64,000 nucleotides of DNA from Deltaproteobacteria bacterium (GTDB lineage Bacteria > Myxococcota > Myxococcia > SLRQ01), in the NCBI GenBank assembly GCA_029210625.1, contig JARGFU010000001.1:133806-197805 (forward strand), given 5' to 3'. Of the stretch, positions 17,577 through 25,532 are shown one piece after another. The notes beneath the pieces are model-generated. The model saw nothing but the letters and a program-made list of their open reading frames with translations. It did not search any database and was not told the DNA's origin. Numbering within the stretch: the first letter of the stretch is position 1; each line of letters starts with the position of its first letter. The translations under genes were made by a program, and so were the position numbers.

Positions 17577-18656
17577 TCAGGTGGTGAAGTTGACCGCCCG
17601 CTCCAGGTCGCTGGGGTTGGTGGCCGCCTCCTTGGCGACATCCAGGGTGACCTTCCCCTGGGAGAGCAGCTCCGCCAGGTGCTGATCGAAGGACTGGGTG
17701 CCGAGCAGGCCCCGGTTCTTCTCCAGGTAGTCCTTGATCTCGCCGGTGCGCTCCTCGTCCCGGATGAACTCCTGGATCGAGCGGGTGGTGAGCATCACCT
17801 CGCAGGCCACCACCCGGCCCGACCCCTGGGCCGGCGGTAGCAGGCGCTGGGAGACGGTCGACTTGAGGGCGTCGGCCAGCCGGGCGCGCACGCCGTGATG
17901 GGCCTCGGGGGGATAGGCCCCGAGCAGGCGGTTGATGGTGCGGACCGCGTCCTGGGTGTGCACCGTGGAGAGGACCAGGTGGCCGGTCTCGGCGGCCTTC
18001 AGCGCGATCTCGATGGTCTCGATGTCGCGCATCTCACCGAGCATGATCACGTCGGGGTCCTGGCGCAGCGAGGCCTTGAGCGCCGCCGCGAAGGAGGGCG
18101 TGTCGGGGCCGATCTCCCGCTGGGTCACCCGGGAGAGCTTGTCCTCGTGGAAGAACTCGATGGGGTCCTCGATGGTGAGGACGTGCTTGCGCTCGTGGGC
18201 GTTGATGTAGCCCACGATGGCCGCCAGGGTGCTGGACTTGCCCGAGCCGGTGACGCCGGTGACCAGCACCAGGCCCCGCTCGGTCTGGGCCACCTTCTCG
18301 AGCACCGCCGGGAGGTTGAGGCTGGCGAAGCTCGGGACGTCGTAGGGGATGGCCCGCAGGATGATCCCGAGGTTGCCCTCGCTCCGGAAGATGCTGGCCC
18401 GGAAGCGCGCCACCCCCGGCAGGGCGTAGGAGGCGTCGTGCTCGGTGAGCTCCTCGAGGCTGCCCTTGTAGCGGGAGCGGCTCAGGATGTGCCCGGCGAC
18501 CCGCTGGGTGTCCTCGGCCGAGAGGGCGGGGACCTTCACGGCGAGGAGCTCTCCGTTCACTCGCAGCGCGGGCGACGCGCCGACCTTGAAGTGGATGTCC
18601 GACGCGCCGGTGTTCACCGAGGCGCCCAGGAAGCGGTTGAAACTCTCGAGCTCCAT
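17577..18656 (-). CDS. pilT: Type IV pilus retraction ATPase PilT
   Basis: Walker A GVTGSGKST and the PilT motifs TIEDPIEF and LGEMRD. At 359 aa the length is typical. Confidence 0.9.
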   Translation of the reverse strand: MELESFNRFLGASVNTGASDIHFKVGASPALRVNGELLAVKVPALSAEDTQRVAGHILSRSRYKGSLEELTEHDASYALPGVARFRASIFRSEGNLGIILRAIPYDVPSFASLNLPAVLEKVAQTERGLVLVTGVTGSGKSSTLAAIVGYINAHERKHVLTIEDPIEFFHEDKLSRVTQREIGPDTPSFAAALKASLRQDPDVIMLGEMRDIETIEIALKAAETGHLVLSTVHTQDAVRTINRLLGAYPPEAHHGVRARLADALKSTVSQRLLPPAQGSGRVVACEVMLTTRSIQEFIRDEERTGEIKDYLEKNRGLLGTQSFDQHLAELLSQGKVTLDVAKEAATNPSDLERAVNFTT

Positions 18657-18672
18657 CGTGCTCTCCTCTCGC

Positions 18673-19170
18673 CTAGCGCATCCCGAGCTCGAAGGCCTTC
18701 GCGGCCGTGAGCTCGTCGTTGGTCTTCCGCAGCCGCTCGGCGAGCGTCTGGCAGAAGCCCCGGTAGATCTTCCGGGCCAGGGTGTCGTCCGCGGCCAGCA
18801 CCTTCTCGAAGGCGTCCCGCTCCATCACCAGCAGGCGGGCGTCCCTCGTCACCCGCACCCGGGCGCTGGTGAGCATGTCGTCGACCAGGGCCATCTCGCC
18901 GAAGATCTGCCCGGGGCCGAGGCGGCCGAGCTCCTCGTCGTCGCCGTCCCCGTCGGTGTCCTCGCCGCGGGTGACCAGGACCTCGCCCTCGATGATCACG
19001 TAGAGGGCATCCCCCAGGGCGCCCCGCTCGATCACGACCTCCCCGGCGGGCACGTCGCGGTGCGCGGCGATCTCCCCCAGGCGGGTGGTCTCGTCGAAGT
19101 TCAGCTGCGAGAAGATGCGGAGCTTCTGGAGCAGCTCCACCCCCTCCACCTCACCGAGTGCATTGTCCAC
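18673..19170 (-). CDS. Cyclic nucleotide-binding (cNMP/CAP effector) domain protein
   Basis: Carries FGEMALV…RSARV phosphate-binding-cassette-like motifs. Sits immediately upstream of pilT on the same strand. Confidence 0.7.
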   Translation of the reverse strand: MDNALGEVEGVELLQKLRIFSQLNFDETTRLGEIAAHRDVPAGEVVIERGALGDALYVIIEGEVLVTRGEDTDGDGDDEELGRLGPGQIFGEMALVDDMLTSARVRVTRDARLLVMERDAFEKVLAADDTLARKIYRGFCQTLAERLRKTNDELTAAKAFELGMR

Positions 19171-19223
19171 GGCTCACCTCCGAGGCCGGCATCATGGCCC
19201 GAACCGCTCCCGTGGATCCAGCT

Positions 19224-19688
19224 TCAGGGGCAGAGGTCGACGGTGAAGAAGCCCTCGGCGTGGTGACCCTCGTAGGAGGTCTTCAGGCCGGCGGTCACGG
19301 TGGTCTCGGTGATCTCGGTGACGATGATCCCGCCGGTGGTGCCGATCATGTTCACCCCGGGCTCGGTCACGAAGGTCGCGTTCAGGTGCAGCCCGTAGAG
19401 GTGCTCCCCGAGGGTCGTGGGGACGTTCACGAGCATGTAGGGCGGGTCCGGCTCGGTGAACTCGTCACAGGAGGTGTAGGGGGCGGCGTGGAGCTTGGAG
19501 AACCAGCCCTCGGCGTCGGAGAGGAAGGCGTTGGTGCTCCCCTGGACGAAGGTCCAGGGCTGCCCGGCGATCTCCCCGCTCAAGACCTGATCGGCGACGG
19601 TGAAGGCCGTCCCGTCGTCGTCCTCCGGTGCGCCGCAGGCGGCGAGCGCGAGGACCAGCGAGGGGAGGAGGAAGAGGCGCCGGCGCAT
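19224..19688 (-). CDS. Hypothetical lipoprotein
   Basis: ATG at 19688 with signal peptide and lipobox MRRRLFLLPSLVLALAACG. The upstream part of the track ORF is a G/R-rich artefact. Confidence 0.5.
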   Translation of the reverse strand: MRRRLFLLPSLVLALAACGAPEDDDGTAFTVADQVLSGEIAGQPWTFVQGSTNAFLSDAEGWFSKLHAAPYTSCDEFTEPDPPYMLVNVPTTLGEHLYGLHLNATFVTEPGVNMIGTTGGIIVTEITETTVTAGLKTSYEGHHAEGFFTVDLCP

Positions 19689-19696
19689 TCTCCCCC

Positions 19697-21214
19697 CTAC
19701 TCGCAGACCTGATCCCGCCGGATGCACTGCTTGGGCAGGTAGAAGAGCTCCGGATCGTCCCAGAGCCGGGCGCAGCGGTAGCCCTGACCACAGGCGGCGT
19801 CCGTGGTGCAGGCCACCCCGCAGGCCGCCCCCTCCGAGTAGGCGAGGCAGTAGTTGCCGCCGGCGCCGCAGTCGGCGTCGGTCTCGCAGCCCGAGCACAT
19901 CATCGTCTGCCCGCCGTTGGGGTTCAGCTGGGGATCCTGATCGATGCCGTGGACCCCGTAGTGGACATCCCAGAAGTCCTTGTTCACGCCCCGCAGGAGG
20001 GTCAGCCAGGAGAGGGGGTAGTGGGTGCCGTCCTCCTCGGTGATGGTGAACCAGAAGAGCAGCTCGTGGATCAACTGGTAGCCGGCCGAGAAGGGGGTGG
20101 TGTTCACCGTGGTGACCATGTCGACGTTGTCGAAGGTCTTCGCGGGGTTCTTCATCATGTCGTCGACGTAGGAGCGGTAGGAGTTGCAGCCGTCGAAGAT
20201 GAAGATCTGGTACTTGCTCGCCAGCGGCAGGTCGGCGAAGGCGCTGGCCCGCAGCTCGTAGCGCGGGTGGTAGTCCAGCAGGAAGCCGGCGCCCTCACCG
20301 GCGTGGCCCGAGTAGACGACGATGTCCCGGGCGGCGAAGGAGGCGGCCATGGCCTGGGAGAGGACGCCCTGATCGCCACCCCCGTCCATCTCGGCGGTGT
20401 AGACGTAGACGTTCACGGCCACCTCCTTGCCCTCGACCTTCAGGGTCCGGGTGAAGGGCTCGGACTCGAGGGTGAGGCTCTCGAGGCTGGTGGCGCTCGG
20501 GTGGGTCCAGCCCCCCTCCAGGAGGTACTCGACCGTCCACTTCGCGGTCTCGAGGTCGTAGCGCTCGGTGTTGTAGTCGCCGCCGAAGTGGATCGCGATG
20601 TCGAAGATCCCGTCGGCGAAGAGCTCGTCGTACTTGGGGAAGGCGTCGCGGCTCTCCGAGCCGGCGATGGTGACGGTCACCTGCTCGCCGGTCGCCTCAC
20701 CCCAGTCCTTCACCTCGACCACGAAGGTGCGCGGATCGTTGGACTCGGGGGCGACCTTGCTCATCAGGAGGTTGTGCCCGATGAACTCCATCTCGAAGGG
20801 GAAGACCGCCCGGGTGGCGTCCACCACCGTGGCGGCCTCCGCGCTGGCGTTGTTGCGCTTGAAGTAGGTGAAGAACTCGTTGGCCCCCTCGGGGAGCTCG
20901 GCGTTGGCGTCGCGCTCCACCTGCTGGATGTGGCTCTTCACCGCCCGGCCGACGGTACCCAGGCGCGCGGCGACCAGGCGCTCGAGGGTGGCCGTCTGCT
21001 CCTCGGGCGTCTGGGTGGCGTAGTCCGCCGGCAAGGTGGCGTGGGCCTCGCCGGAGAGGACGTACTCGCGGGCGGTGTCCGAGACGTAGTTGTCGGTCTT
21101 CCCGTCGCCCAGCGGCGGCAGGGCGTGAGGGCCCTCGGGGTTCTCCCCCGGGCAGCCCACGGAGAGGGCGAGGGGTGCGAGGAGGGCGAGAGCGAGGACC
21201 GACGCGAGCCGCAT
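19697..21214 (-). CDS. Secreted or lipoprotein putative clan CD (caspase/legumain/gingipain-like) cysteine peptidase with a C-terminal Cys-rich tail
   Basis: Start MRLASVLALALLAPLALSVGC. A hydrophobic strand followed by His-Gly (IVVYSGHAGEGAG) and a hydrophobic strand followed by Gly-Cys (IFIFDGCNSY) resemble the clan-CD catalytic dyad. C-terminal CxxC-rich segment. Confidence 0.5.
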   Translation of the reverse strand: MRLASVLALALLAPLALSVGCPGENPEGPHALPPLGDGKTDNYVSDTAREYVLSGEAHATLPADYATQTPEEQTATLERLVAARLGTVGRAVKSHIQQVERDANAELPEGANEFFTYFKRNNASAEAATVVDATRAVFPFEMEFIGHNLLMSKVAPESNDPRTFVVEVKDWGEATGEQVTVTIAGSESRDAFPKYDELFADGIFDIAIHFGGDYNTERYDLETAKWTVEYLLEGGWTHPSATSLESLTLESEPFTRTLKVEGKEVAVNVYVYTAEMDGGGDQGVLSQAMAASFAARDIVVYSGHAGEGAGFLLDYHPRYELRASAFADLPLASKYQIFIFDGCNSYRSYVDDMMKNPAKTFDNVDMVTTVNTTPFSAGYQLIHELLFWFTITEEDGTHYPLSWLTLLRGVNKDFWDVHYGVHGIDQDPQLNPNGGQTMMCSGCETDADCGAGGNYCLAYSEGAACGVACTTDAACGQGYRCARLWDDPELFYLPKQCIRRDQVCE

Positions 21215-21295
21215 GGGGACTCCTTCTTTGGCCGGCGCCGCCGGCCCACGAGAGTATCCGGACAGTCTATCAGCCCGGCCGGGCCCGGCCACGCT

Positions 21296-21751
21296 TCAGG
21301 GCACGGTCAGGGTCGCCGAGCCGATGAGGACCGGCTCGTTGGGATCGTTGAGATCGTCCCAGCGCCGGTAGAGGGTGAGGGTGGTCTCCCCCGCGACGTC
21401 CACCAGGCTGAAGCTGATGTCGTAGAGGCAGTCGCAGCCGGCGACGGCCTTCGGGGTCAGATCCCGGGGCTGGACCAGCAGGTCGATACTCTGACCCGCG
21501 CGCCGCTCGAAGGCCTCCACCTCCTGCTCGCAGCGGAAGTGGGCCTCCTTGTACTCGACCTGGATGCCGCCGCCGCCCACCGCCGCCTCCAGGCGCTCGT
21601 CGTGGGTGCCCTGGTAGGGATCACCGGCGCACTCGGCCTGGACCAGGCCGTCGATGCGGGTGGCCTCCTCCCAACCCGAGGGCAGCGAGCCGCCGCAGGC
21701 GGGCAGGGAGAAGATCGTGAGCAGGAGAGCGGGAACGACGAGGTTTCGCAT
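21296..21751 (-). CDS. Hypothetical lipoprotein
   Basis: Signal peptide and lipobox MRNLVVPALLLTIFSLPACG. 151 aa. Confidence 0.5.
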   Translation of the reverse strand: MRNLVVPALLLTIFSLPACGGSLPSGWEEATRIDGLVQAECAGDPYQGTHDERLEAAVGGGGIQVEYKEAHFRCEQEVEAFERRAGQSIDLLVQPRDLTPKAVAGCDCLYDISFSLVDVAGETTLTLYRRWDDLNDPNEPVLIGSATLTVP

Positions 21752-21760
21752 GGTCCCATT

Positions 21761-22240
21761 CTAGCCCGATGCGCCCAGGCGTCCGCCGAGGGCGGCCACC
21801 AGGAAGAACTGCACCCGCCGCTGCAGCCCGGGAGCGCCGCTCTCCCGGCTGCCGGCGACGTTCAGCACCCGCACCCCGTGCTCGGCGCAGAAGTCGATGA
21901 AGCGCCCGGCCCAGCGCTCGTCGTTCCGGGAGAGGTCGACGTGGAGGAGCGGCCGGCCGTGACGGCGGGTCAGCGAGGCGGTCAGGGCCGAGCCGCCGGT
22001 GGGCTCCCCGTAGGTGAAGAGCACGGTGGCGTCGGCGGCCAGCACGTTCCTCTCGGTGCGGACCGCGTAGTCGCGCTCCGGGGTCTCCTCGAGGTGGTAC
22101 CGCTCGGGGATCCGCCCGTCCTCGGCGCGGCGGCCGGCGGGGCAGGCGCCGCCGTGGGAGAGACCGAGGAAGAGGGCGGCGTCCAGGCCACCCCGGTCGG
22201 CGCCCGTCTGCCCGCCGGAGATGATCTTCTCGACGCTCAC
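21761..22240 (-). CDS. SLOG-family 'putative molybdenum carrier' (YpsA/LOG-like Rossmann) protein
   Basis: IISGGQTGADRGGLDAA is the signature of the MoCo_carrier/SLOG family. Confidence 0.65.
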   Translation of the reverse strand: MSVEKIISGGQTGADRGGLDAALFLGLSHGGACPAGRRAEDGRIPERYHLEETPERDYAVRTERNVLAADATVLFTYGEPTGGSALTASLTRRHGRPLLHVDLSRNDERWAGRFIDFCAEHGVRVLNVAGSRESGAPGLQRRVQFFLVAALGGRLGASG

Positions 22241-22287
22241 GCCCCAGAGACTACCGTAGGGGGTGAGGAGAAGGAGGTGGTCGCACG

Positions 22288-23319
22288 ATGAAGGCGATGG
22301 TGCTCGAGGGCGTGGTCGATCTGCGCCAGGACCGCGAGCCCCTGAGGCTCGTGGAGCTGCCCGAGCCCGAGCCGGGCCCCGGTGAGGTCCGGCTCCGGGT
22401 CCGGGTCTGCGGGGTCTGCCACACCGAGCTCGACGAGATCGAGGGGCGCCTGAAGCTCCCCCGCTTCCCGGCGACCCTCGGCCACCAGGTGGTCGGCACC
22501 GTCGATGCCCTCGGAGCGGGGGTGCGGGGCGTCGCCGAGGGGGAGCGCCTCGGGGTCGCCTGGATCCACTCGGCCTGCGGCGCCTGCGAGCACTGCCGGC
22601 GCGGCGAGGAGAACCTCTGCGCCACCTTCCAGGCCACCGGGCGCGACGCCCCCGGCGGCTACGCCGAGAAGCTGGTCGTCCCCGCCGACTTCACCCACGC
22701 CCTGCCCTCCCAGCTCTCCGACGAGGCCGCCGCGCCCCTCCTCTGCGCCGGCGCGATCGGCCACCGCTCGCTGGCCCTCTGCGATCTCGCCGACGGAGAC
22801 CGGCTGGGGCTGACGGGCTTCGGCGCCTCCGGTCACCTCGTCCTCAAGCTCGCCCGCTACCTCTACCCCTCCACCGAGATCTACGTCTTCGCCCGGGATC
22901 CGGTGGTGCGCGACTTCGCCCGCTCCCTGGGCGCGACCTGGTCGGGCGACACCCAGGAGGCCCCGCCGGTGAAGCTGCGGGCCATCATCGACACCACCCC
23001 CGCCTGGACGCCGGTGGTGGCGGCCCTCGCCCACCTGCAGCCCGGCGGCCGGCTGGTGGTGAACGCCATCCGCAAGGAGGCCGCGGACAAGGCGGCCCTC
23101 CTCGAGCTCGACTACCCCCGCCACCTCTGGCTGGAGAAGGAGCTCAAGACCGTGGCCAACGTCACCCGCGCCGACGTGCGGGACTTCCTCTCGGTGGCCG
23201 CCGCCGCGGGCATCCAGCCCAAGACCGAGGTCTACGCCCTCGAAGACGCGAACGCCGCGCTGCTGGCCCTCAAGGAGAAGCCAACGCGCGGCGCGCTCGT
23301 GCTGAGGGTCTCCGGCTAG
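22288..23319 (+). CDS. Zinc-dependent alcohol dehydrogenase (MDR superfamily)
   Basis: Carries GVCHTE…H (catalytic Zn), the structural-Zn Cys cluster CGACEHCRRGEENLC and a GxGxxG-like NAD motif GFGASGHLV. Confidence 0.85.
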   Translation: MKAMVLEGVVDLRQDREPLRLVELPEPEPGPGEVRLRVRVCGVCHTELDEIEGRLKLPRFPATLGHQVVGTVDALGAGVRGVAEGERLGVAWIHSACGACEHCRRGEENLCATFQATGRDAPGGYAEKLVVPADFTHALPSQLSDEAAAPLLCAGAIGHRSLALCDLADGDRLGLTGFGASGHLVLKLARYLYPSTEIYVFARDPVVRDFARSLGATWSGDTQEAPPVKLRAIIDTTPAWTPVVAALAHLQPGGRLVVNAIRKEAADKAALLELDYPRHLWLEKELKTVANVTRADVRDFLSVAAAAGIQPKTEVYALEDANAALLALKEKPTRGALVLRVSG

Positions 23320-23322
23320 GAA

Positions 23323-23997
23323 TCAGCCAGCGTCCCACCAGGCGTCGACGACCTCGAGGTCGGAGTCGAGGGTGTAGGTCACCGTCTCGGTGATGCCGCC
23401 CTCGGGATCGATGACCCGGCCCACCTGCACGCTGGCCTCGGTGACCACGGTGCCGTGCCCGGTGACCTCGGCCCAGTAGAAGCGGAAGTCCGCGGAGTAG
23501 CAGCCCCAGCCCGAGGAGGGGTCGCAGACCCTGGACTCCTCGGCGAGGACGATGAGGCCGTCGACCGCCTCCTGCAGGTAGGTCGGCAGGGCGGCGTAGC
23601 TCTCGTAGAGGGTGGTCGTGTCGGGCTGGATCCAGCCCTTGTCGTAGGCGCAGTCGGTCAGGCGGGAGAGGTTGTAGACGCCCACGTTGTTCACGTCGGC
23701 GATCTGCTCGAGGGTGTCGAAGACGCCGTTGCGCCGGAGCTTCTCGCGGATGATGTGCTTGGCGGCGTCGCTCTGCAGGCCGCAGTCCACGTCGAGGACC
23801 TGCACGGTGGTGAGCGCGGAGTTGACCAGCCAGACCGTGCCCTTGCGCTCGTACTCGGAGAGCGAGGCGATGTAGGCCTCCTCGTCGCCATCGAGGATGG
23901 CGGCGCGGCCGACCGAGGCGCCGGACTCGAAGGTGCCGGCCGAGCCGCAGGCGGTGAGGAAGAGGGCGAGGGCGAGAGACGAGAGAGCGAGGCGCAT
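23323..23997 (-). CDS. Hypothetical lipoprotein
   Basis: MRLALSSLALALFLTACG lipobox. 224 aa. Confidence 0.5.
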   Translation of the reverse strand: MRLALSSLALALFLTACGSAGTFESGASVGRAAILDGDEEAYIASLSEYERKGTVWLVNSALTTVQVLDVDCGLQSDAAKHIIREKLRRNGVFDTLEQIADVNNVGVYNLSRLTDCAYDKGWIQPDTTTLYESYAALPTYLQEAVDGLIVLAEESRVCDPSSGWGCYSADFRFYWAEVTGHGTVVTEASVQVGRVIDPEGGITETVTYTLDSDLEVVDAWWDAG

Positions 23998-24164: not shown

Positions 24165-25532
24165 CTAGCGGCAGAGGGGCGCCATGGCCAGGGCCTCCTC
24201 GAAGAGGACCCGGTGCTCCTTCAGCCGCACGTCCACCACCGCGCCCTCGCGTTCGACGCCCGCCAGGTCGCGGAAGCGCAGGCTGGCGCGCTCGACCTCG
24301 CAGTTGCCCCGCTCGTCGCAGCGCGGCTGGCTCTGGTGGCTCAGGGCCAGGGAGAGCAGCCCGGCCGAGCGCAGGCTGCGCAGCTCGGCGGGCTGGCTCC
24401 GGCGATCGCCGTTGGCGTCGGCCCAGAGCAGCAGGCGGTAGAAGGCCGGATCCCGCCGGTCGATCTGCCCGTCGCCGTTGGCGTCGAGGGCCGCGAGGGC
24501 CTCGAAGCCGTTCGCCGCCGGCCGGCCGTCGATCAGCACCGCCGAGCCGAAGAGCTCCTGCCCGGAGGTGATCGCCCCGTCGCCATCCCGATCGAGGGCC
24601 AGCCAGGGGGTGACCGCCGAGGGCCAGTCGGTGCGCAGCACGGGCGTCCGGCCGGGCGCCGCCAGGTCGAAGCGGCTCTCCCCGTCGTCGGGGAGGAAGC
24701 TCACCCGCTCGCCGCGCCCGAAGACGACGACCAGGGGGGTGGTGCAGCCGTGGGTCTCACAGCCGGAGCTGTCGACGCAGTAGTACTCGGTGTAGCGGTC
24801 CTGGTGCAGGCGGGTGAGCACCTGCCCCTCGCAGCGGCTGGTGACCCAGTCGCGGATCATGGTCTCCCAGCGGGTGGGCGAGGGATCGACCCGGCGCGAG
24901 CACCAGGCCTCGAGCCAGGCCTGGGAGCAGCCCCCCGAGTTGCCGGCGGCCAGGCAGGCCTGGAAGTCGTCGCCCAGGTGGCCGTTGCAGTTGCCCTTGC
25001 TGTCGTTCGCCTCGCAGGTCAGCTTGTCCTCGCAGACGGCGCAGCTCGGATCCGCGGCGCAGTCGGGGTCGTCACAGTCCAGAAGGCCATCGCAGTCGTC
25101 GTCGCTGCCGTTGGCGCAGTACTCGGCGCCGAGGTCCTGGCAGACCGCGCAGGCCGCGGCGCCGTTGCAGTCGGGATCCTCGCAGTCGATCGCGCCGTCG
25201 CAGTCCTCGTCGAGCCCGTTGCTGCAGTGCTCACCGCCCGGCTCGGGCTCACAGAGGTCGTCGCCGCCGCCGGGATCCCCGCCCCCCGGGAGGTCGTTGC
25301 CGCCGCCGGGCTCGCCGCCCCCGTCGGAGGAGGCGCCGCCCCCCGCGATGTCACCGGCGCTGGAGAGGCGCTGCCCTCCGCTCTCGATCGTCACCTCGCC
25401 GCCGCCGCAGCCGGGGGTCAGCAGGAAGGAGGGGACCAGGAGAGAGATGACGAGGGGCAGGAGGAAGCGCGGAGAGAGGGAGGGGTTCGCTCTCACGTCC
25501 TGCTGCCACCGATCGCCAGTCTTCGTCGTCAT
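24165..25532 (-). CDS. Cysteine-rich lipoprotein with duplicated CxNGxD[ED]DCDGxxDCxDPDC motifs and C-terminal DxDGDG (EF-hand/dockerin-like) calcium-binding repeats
   Basis: ATG at 25532 preceded by an AGGAGG RBS. Lipobox LLTPGC. The first 100 aa of the track ORF are rejected. Confidence 0.55.
   Translation of the reverse strand: MTTKTGDRWQQDVRANPSLSPRFLLPLVISLLVPSFLLTPGCGGGEVTIESGGQRLSSAGDIAGGGASSDGGGEPGGGNDLPGGGDPGGGDDLCEPEPGGEHCSNGLDEDCDGAIDCEDPDCNGAAACAVCQDLGAEYCANGSDDDCDGLLDCDDPDCAADPSCAVCEDKLTCEANDSKGNCNGHLGDDFQACLAAGNSGGCSQAWLEAWCSRRVDPSPTRWETMIRDWVTSRCEGQVLTRLHQDRYTEYYCVDSSGCETHGCTTPLVVVFGRGERVSFLPDDGESRFDLAAPGRTPVLRTDWPSAVTPWLALDRDGDGAITSGQELFGSAVLIDGRPAANGFEALAALDANGDGQIDRRDPAFYRLLLWADANGDRRSQPAELRSLRSAGLLSLALSHQSQPRCDERGNCEVERASLRFRDLAGVEREGAVVDVRLKEHRVLFEEALAMAPLCR

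Follow-up and report, generated by a model that had tools for sequence, protein, structure and literature searches.

A predicted lipid-anchored clan-CD cysteine peptidase family in Myxococcota, with lipoprotein gene neighbors specific to one genome

Gene content of the locus

We examined a window of 64,000 nucleotides (nt; approximately 70% G+C) from contig JARGFU010000001.1 of a deltaproteobacterium classified within the Myxococcota, in which three adjacent genes on the minus strand each encode a predicted lipoprotein. The middle gene (19697..21214; NCBI call P1V51_00715) encodes a 505-amino-acid (aa) lipoprotein with a predicted clan-CD cysteine-peptidase domain, and is referred to here as the protease gene. 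It is adjoined upstream by the gene for a 151-aa lipoprotein (21296..21751; P1V51_00720) and downstream by the gene for a 154-aa orphan lipoprotein (19224..19688; P1V51_00710). An earlier sequence-only reading of this DNA had described the three as an operon in which the flanking lipoproteins could be cognate inhibitors, immunity proteins or substrates of a peptidase. Its gene structure was confirmed. All three open reading frames (ORFs) were present at these coordinates, their chosen starts are those of the NCBI gene calls, and the genes are separated by gaps of 81 nt (21215-21295) and 8 nt (19689-19696, counted from the protease stop codon). The protease gene starts at the ATG at 21214, 7 nt past the Shine-Dalgarno sequence AAGGAG, and the 154-aa gene starts at the ATG at 19688, which is preceded by GGGGGAGA. 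The G+C content at third codon positions (GC3) of the three frames was 0.92, 0.97 and 0.97, compared to 0.62-0.67 in the overlapping plus-strand ORFs, and we therefore consider all three to be real coding frames. It was considered whether the 154-aa orphan could be a spurious ORF, and this was rejected, as its GC3 of 0.97 and its canonical lipobox argue for a real gene.

The lipoprotein signals that had been proposed for all three proteins were likewise found. Each protein has a basic N-terminus, a hydrophobic core and an [LS][PVA][AG]C box, with the signal and lipobox sequences MRNLVVPALLLTIFSLPAC in the 151-aa protein, MRLASVLALALLAPLALSVGC in the 505-aa protein and MRRRLFLLPSLVLALAAC in the 154-aa protein, the last with the canonical lipobox LAAC. 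The lipobox cysteine is invariant among 30 homologues of the 505-aa protein (alignment A1) and among 32 homologues of the 151-aa protein (alignment A3). A crude lipobox scan of the whole window flagged 13 ORFs, of which approximately 10 were plausible by inspection, and missed the 154-aa gene; three adjacent lipoprotein genes are therefore not statistically remarkable here. None of the three proteins reached a Pfam or NCBIfam threshold, in keeping with the earlier description of the flanking lipoproteins as lying outside known families. A tblastn search of the rest of the window found no paralogues of the three genes, and PADLOC returned no defense-system match for the three proteins.

Domain layout and fold of the 505-aa lipoprotein

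The signal peptide and lipobox occupy residues 1-21 (21152..21214), with C21 as the cysteine predicted to be lipidated. They are followed by a disordered tether that reaches to approximately residue 37, and residues 18-37, with a predicted local distance difference test score (pLDDT) below 50, are the only disordered part of the structural model described below. The N-terminal domain comprises residues 38-195 (20630..21103; pLDDT of approximately 90) and contains a GKxDNY..NAREF segment, a long helix at residues 70-105 and a β-sheet. Within the alignment of 30 orthologs, E50 is invariant and D41, Y43, S45, N47, A48 and R49 are nearly so. This domain gave no family match and no recognizable relative in the Pfam and NCBIfam scans; it could be a structural subdomain, by analogy to the gingipains, or a prodomain. 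The predicted caspase-like catalytic domain follows at residues 196-435 (19910..20629), and a ten-cysteine module closes the protein at residues 440-504 (19703..19897).

The sequence-only reading had proposed a clan-CD arrangement for the middle protein, with one hydrophobic strand leading to His-Gly and a second leading to Gly-Cys. This arrangement was borne out. The His motif IVVYSGHAGEGAG and the Cys motif IFIFDGCNSYRSY are present, and their catalytic candidates H304 (YSGHAG; codon 20303..20305, checked) and C343 (FDGC; codon 20186..20188, checked) lie 39 residues apart. An AlphaFold2 model of the protein, built from 30 sequences, reached a pLDDT of 86.6 and a predicted template modeling score of 0.84, and it has the caspase-hemoglobinase layout that a clan-CD peptidase is expected to show. 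The elements run in the order β203-210, α219-233, β263-273, α282-295, β298-302, H304, hairpin 311-321, α323-328, β336-341 and C343, and continue with α348-354, β364-369, α375-389 and β419-422. In the layout described by McLuskey and Mottram, the catalytic His lies on loop L3, the Cys lies on loop L4, and a small β-element stands between β3 and α3 (PMC4357240). The element order of the model, including its small β3-α3 hairpin, agrees with the clan definition given there (PMC4357240). H304 stands two residues past strand 298-302 and C343 two residues past strand 336-341, which places them on the predicted L3 and L4 loops, His before Cys, at the C-terminal ends of β3 and β4. The model also contains the α/β/α sandwich of the clan, with a central sheet of five parallel strands and one antiparallel strand, and with five flanking helices. 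Its dips in confidence coincide with the L1, L3 and L5 loops, which in clan CD bind the substrate.

Both catalytic candidates are invariant in the 30 orthologs. Among 43 diverse relatives at 20-51% identity, G303 is kept in 43 of 43, H304 in 42, C343 in 41, Q336 in 42 and D213 in 39. Comparison with Pfam profiles gave sub-threshold matches to Peptidase_C25 in 6 of 30 full-length members and in 8 of 10 isolated domains. The C25 profile (PF01364) scored 11.9-14.8 bits against the catalytic domains of the window protein and seven homologues, the window protein itself receiving 11.9 bits (E-value 0.13), and the cut-off is 23. The C14 profile (PF00656; cut-off 21.4) scored 13.3-16.5 bits in 2 of 10 homologue domains and gave no match to the window protein. 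It was noted that the sub-threshold C25 and C14 alignments span exactly the His-to-Cys segment and recur in several members. Among the 30 members, no Pfam match to CHAT (PF12770), Peptidase_C11 (PF03415) or Peptidase_C13 (PF01650) was returned at E-values up to 10, a range in which the HMMER filters drop most matches above approximately 0.1. Taken at the level of fold and conservation, these results support the assignment of the 505-aa protein as a predicted clan-CD peptidase.

One further candidate relationship was rejected. A search of PDB sequences by hmmsearch with a profile from a second, more diverse family alignment (A2) matched designer pentatricopeptide repeat proteins at an E-value of approximately 5e-7, but no single stretch passed, and the match is an artifact of summed repeats. 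Its source was a 27-residue helix (A2 profile positions 239-265) that weakly matches every repeat, and which could mislead automated annotation.

Apart from the lipobox cysteine, the mature 505-aa protein contains 11 cysteines, namely C343 and ten in residues 440-504, so that C343 is the sole cysteine outside the C-terminal knot. All ten knot cysteines are invariant, and they are predicted to form five disulfides, which in turn implies an oxidizing, extracytoplasmic location. If so, C343 would be the only free thiol of the protein. The C-terminal tail had earlier been called CxxC-rich; it is indeed rich in cysteine, but only one literal CxxC occurs in it, and 'Cys-rich' is the accurate term. 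The tail gave a weak match to the Myxococcales Cys-rich repeat TIGR04201 (Myxo_Cys_RPT; E-value 0.0087), and weak Dickkopf_N matches were encountered in 11 of 30 family members.

Distribution and relatives of the protease family

We sought to characterize the family to which the 505-aa protein belongs. More than 180 close homologues of approximately 500 aa were found at 50-64% identity, all annotated as 'hypothetical' and without a Pfam domain, and these come from metagenome-assembled genomes (MAGs) of Myxococcota and Bradymonadia. When 1.84 billion cluster representatives were searched in full with an HMM of the family, 437 relatives were returned at E-values of 1e-3 or lower, including 102 at 1e-30 or lower. 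With each GTDB species represented by a single genome, 54 protease loci were identified, all of them in MAGs. These were labeled as Myxococcota, Polyangia or Nannocystaceae (28 loci), as Bradymonadia (10 loci), or as unclassified 'delta/proteobacteria' or 'bacterium' (16 loci); all 38 taxonomically labeled loci are thus Myxococcota, with Bradymonadia included. No description of the protease family was found in the literature searched. The family was found here only in Myxococcota and is covered by no curated Pfam or NCBIfam model; it is best described, from its sequences and the modeled fold, as a putative new sequence family within clan CD.

The family has diversified within genomes, since several MAGs contain two members. 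In these, an ortholog (46-64% identity) occurs together with a paralogue (31-33% identity); the paired loci L015/L047, L038/L048, L040/L045 and L041/L042 hold either an ortholog at approximately 50% identity and a paralogue, or two paralogues at 31-33%. Additional domains were encountered among the 43 distant relatives, with a lamin tail domain (LTD) in seven, C-terminal in the six that were mapped, and a pre-peptidase C-terminal (PPC) domain in two. The LTD carriers P0231, P0238, P0261, P0281, P0283 and P0290 are approximately 650-720 aa long, with a C-terminal PF00932 match at E-values down to 4e-21. LTD and PPC domains are typical of secreted bacterial proteins, PPC particularly of secreted peptidases, and their presence in distant relatives supports an extracytoplasmic setting. 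Two relatives depart from the catalytic motifs: P0281 is without the catalytic Cys (DGG for DGC), and P0342 is without both His and Cys.

Proposed activity and specificity

From these observations, we consider it likely that the gene at 19697-21214 encodes a stand-alone, lipid-anchored, extracytoplasmic clan-CD cysteine endopeptidase of a Myxococcota family. The gene structure, the fold class, the conservation of the lipobox and of the His and Cys, and the lack of conserved neighbors are shown by the analysis; the catalytic activity of the protein, its specificity at the P1 position, its membrane location and its substrates are properties that we infer. In the working that we propose, the protein would be exported, signal peptidase II would cut before C21, and C21 would be lipidated. 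A disordered linker of approximately 16 residues would then tether the N-terminal domain (38-195), the catalytic domain (196-435) and a five-disulfide knot (440-504), and H304 and C343, on the loops that follow β3 and β4, would form the catalytic dyad.

An acidic S1 pocket, formed by D213 and D341, would probably select Arg or Lys at P1, like that of metacaspases, paracaspases and gingipain R. D213 (FGGDYN; codon 20576..20578) lies in the loop after β1, and D341 (codon 20192-20194) lies two residues before C343. In the Arg/Lys-specific enzymes of clan CD, an Asp is found near the start of α1 and often a second Asp two residues before the Cys, and such acidic residues include Asp95/Asp211 of TbMCA2, Asp365/Asp462 of MALT1 and Asp163 of RgpB (PMC4357240). 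D213 and D341 occupy analogous sequence positions, and a basic P1 preference is therefore predicted, with low confidence.

A protein of this fold need not be a degradative endopeptidase. PorU of the type IX secretion system (T9SS), the GPI transamidase and the legumain-type ligases are transpeptidases or sortase-like processing enzymes, and the 505-aa protein might function likewise; it might also be a non-catalytic scaffold, as Raptor is. Nothing in the protease sequence tells hydrolysis from transpeptidation. The His, the Cys and the Gly that precedes the His are kept near-universally, contrary to what is expected of a pseudo-enzyme, and the surroundings of the gene show no conserved partner of the T9SS or sorting-signal type. 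We judge this alternative to be unlikely. A more specific proposal, which we regard as quite unlikely, makes the family a counterpart of the gingipains or of PorU that is tethered to the cell surface, is specific to Myxococcota and arose independently of the C25 enzymes of Bacteroidota. The protein would then serve these often predatory bacteria as an outer-surface protease specific for Arg or Lys, in prey digestion or in remodeling of their own surface proteins, or alternatively as a sortase-like transpeptidase in the processing of exported proteins, perhaps, in this genome, with the 154-aa protein as a lineage-specific partner.

Flanking genes and genomic linkage

We then considered the stand-alone endopeptidase against the possibility that the three genes form a functional module, in which the genes on either side of the protease gene encode lipoproteins that act as its cognate inhibitors, as immunity proteins or as its dedicated substrates. 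The two flanking proteins differ in their distribution. The 151-aa lipoprotein belongs to a conserved, unannotated family (83 matches) with four invariant cysteines apart from that of the lipobox and with the motifs HFRCEQ, LVQP, CDCLY and RRWD; it was modeled as a confident, generic β-sandwich with no inhibitor-like match. The 154-aa protein, searched against 5.8 billion protein clusters, matched only itself.

Neither flanking gene was found by tblastn in the 54 protease loci, and the other neighbors of the protease gene in the window, including those for the cpYpsA, cNMP-binding and PilT-like proteins described below, were also without a match in these loci. Clustering of all ORFs neighboring the protease genes recovered no conserved partner. 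Positional analogues were scarce: among the 35 protease loci with adequate flanks, only 5 showed a small ORF on the same strand no more than 150 nt upstream, and only 2 showed one downstream. The two closest protease homologues (64% and 62% identity) are located amid unrelated genes, one of them between the genes for a phosphoglycerate mutase and a thiolase, the latter on the opposite strand. The reciprocal comparison gave the same picture: a protease homologue was present in 0 of 33 metagenome loci of the 151-aa family (17 of these loci being at least 4 kb long), and the context of a further 151-aa homologue, seen on three contigs of one place, also held no protease homologue. The 151-aa family is thus widespread without the protease, and its gene is usually solitary (loci L055-L057 and L062-L094); in L055, for example, it is flanked by the genes for a UvrD-type helicase and an AhpC/TSA peroxiredoxin.

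The boundaries of the triplet are also arbitrary, since the same-strand run in which it lies extends from 17577 to 22240 and holds more than three genes. Upstream of the 151-aa gene, after a gap of 9 nt, is a cpYpsA/SLOG gene (21761-22240, minus strand; Pfam PF12694, E-value 1.4e-50). Downstream of the 154-aa gene, after 53 nt, is a gene for a stand-alone cyclic-nucleotide-binding (cNMP-binding) protein of 165 aa (18673-19170, minus strand; PF00027, E-value 3.6e-20), which is followed after 16 nt by a PilT-like ATPase gene (17577-18656, minus strand). The successive gaps of the run are therefore 9, 81, 8, 53 and 16 nt, and nothing resembling a terminator was found in the run. A scan of 18500-22500 for promoter and terminator consensus sequences was negative, and the predicted folding of the two intergenic RNAs was no stronger than that of shuffled sequence (z of -0.05 and +0.57). 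The three genes may be co-transcribed in this genome, in a unit that would not be confined to them.

The claim of a three-gene operon with cognate lipoproteins thus did not hold up, as neither flank nor any positional analogue accompanied the protease across the 54 genome loci, the protease was absent from the 33 loci of the 151-aa family, and the 154-aa protein is an orphan. The conserved co-occurrence across genomes that marks an operon or a protease-inhibitor module was not observed. The 151-aa and 154-aa genes are neighbors of the protease gene in this genome only and are not supported as its conserved cognate partners, and we consider a functional module of the three genes decidedly improbable.

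Several observations were made on other genes of the window. In PADLOC, the cNMP-binding protein at 18673-19170 gave a match to the sensor portion of the TIR effectors of Pycsar (E-value 1.8e-10), and it is without an effector domain. A minus-strand gene at 24165-25496, approximately 3 kb from the protease gene, encodes a Cys-rich, predicted exported lipoprotein with acidic double-disulfide repeats (NCBIfam NF033662, E-value 3.9e-14) and weak EF-hand/dockerin-like calcium-binding motifs. At 23323-23997, also on the minus strand, is the gene for a 224-aa predicted lipoprotein (MRLALSSLALALFLTAC) that belongs to no Pfam or NCBIfam family.

Evidence against the assignment

A number of results weigh against a clan-CD endopeptidase that acts alone. 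No sequence method gave a significant match to a known peptidase family, the C25 and C14 scores lying at 12-16 bits against cut-offs of 21-23, and neither phmmer with the 505-aa protein nor hmmsearch with alignment A1 returned anything meaningful among PDB sequences. Foldseek matches in the PDB were weak and of mixed α/β type; the best were Rab/Rho GTPases and peptidyl-tRNA hydrolase, at E-values of 2.8e-3 or worse, with the C11 protease iotapain third (5.9e-3). H304 precedes Ala-Gly instead of the usual Gly. D341 is constant within the ortholog clade but varies beyond it among the 43 relatives, which makes the specificity inference weak. The 54 protease loci were retrieved by two peptide patterns, and very divergent relatives lie outside this sample. 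Finally, the missing conserved synteny is compatible with a possible lineage-specific interaction with the 154-aa orphan encoded 8 nt downstream.

The Foldseek matches and the lack of a significant sequence search, along with an hhalign probability of 2% between alignment A1 and a human caspase-3 sequence, in itself uninformative, would also fit a spurious likeness to clan CD, in which a generic three-layer α/β protein has kept its His and Cys motifs for another reason such as metal binding; we regard this as very improbable.

Significance

If the assignment as a lipid-anchored clan-CD cysteine protease is correct, a conserved 'hypothetical' family with 437 cluster representatives gains a testable function, and a new sequence family joins the clan of caspases, gingipains, separase and legumain. 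Many Myxococcota live as micropredators and depend on hydrolases that are secreted or located at the cell surface, and the protease is therefore a reasonable candidate for surface proteolysis. The result does not introduce a new mechanism or a new kind of system; its value is mainly for annotation and for the choice of enzymes to characterize.

Comparison with known systems

We compared the 505-aa protein with the established clan-CD families. The gingipains Kgp and RgpB (C25, PF01364) share only 8-11% identity with it, and their Pfam profile scores 12-15 bits where 23 are required. They are anchored by a T9SS C-terminal domain and contain an Ig-like domain, whereas the 505-aa protein has a predicted N-terminal lipid and a ten-cysteine knot; their His motif is GHG, whereas that of the 505-aa protein is GHAG, in a family found only in Myxococcota. 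The CHAT proteases (SAVED-CHAT, TPR-CHAT/Csx29 and DdvA) gave no Pfam CHAT match to the 505-aa protein even at an E-value of 10. Together with separase (C50), they are cytoplasmic enzymes under the control of nucleotide signals or partner proteins, and their genes lie in conserved defense or signaling operons. Unlike these, the 505-aa protein is a predicted exported lipoprotein with no PADLOC match and no conserved neighbors.

The metacaspases and paracaspases (C14B, PF00656) are similarly distant, with scores in the protease family of 13-16 bits against a cut-off of 21.4. Compared to them, the 505-aa protein is without an identifiable p20/p10 linker or calcium-binding features, is predicted to be extracytoplasmic and disulfide-rich, and has a different N-terminal domain. 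The clostripain-like C11 enzymes (PmC11, iotapain and clostripain) gave no Peptidase_C11 match, a structural score below those of C25 and CHAT, and different accessory domains. In its modeled structure the 505-aa protein is nearest to CHAT, the gingipains and separase; its predicted cellular setting most resembles that of the gingipains and C11, the bacterial enzymes of the clan that act outside the cytoplasm. From all of these families it is set apart by its predicted lipid anchor, its GHAG motif, its N-terminal domain and its ten-cysteine C-terminal knot.

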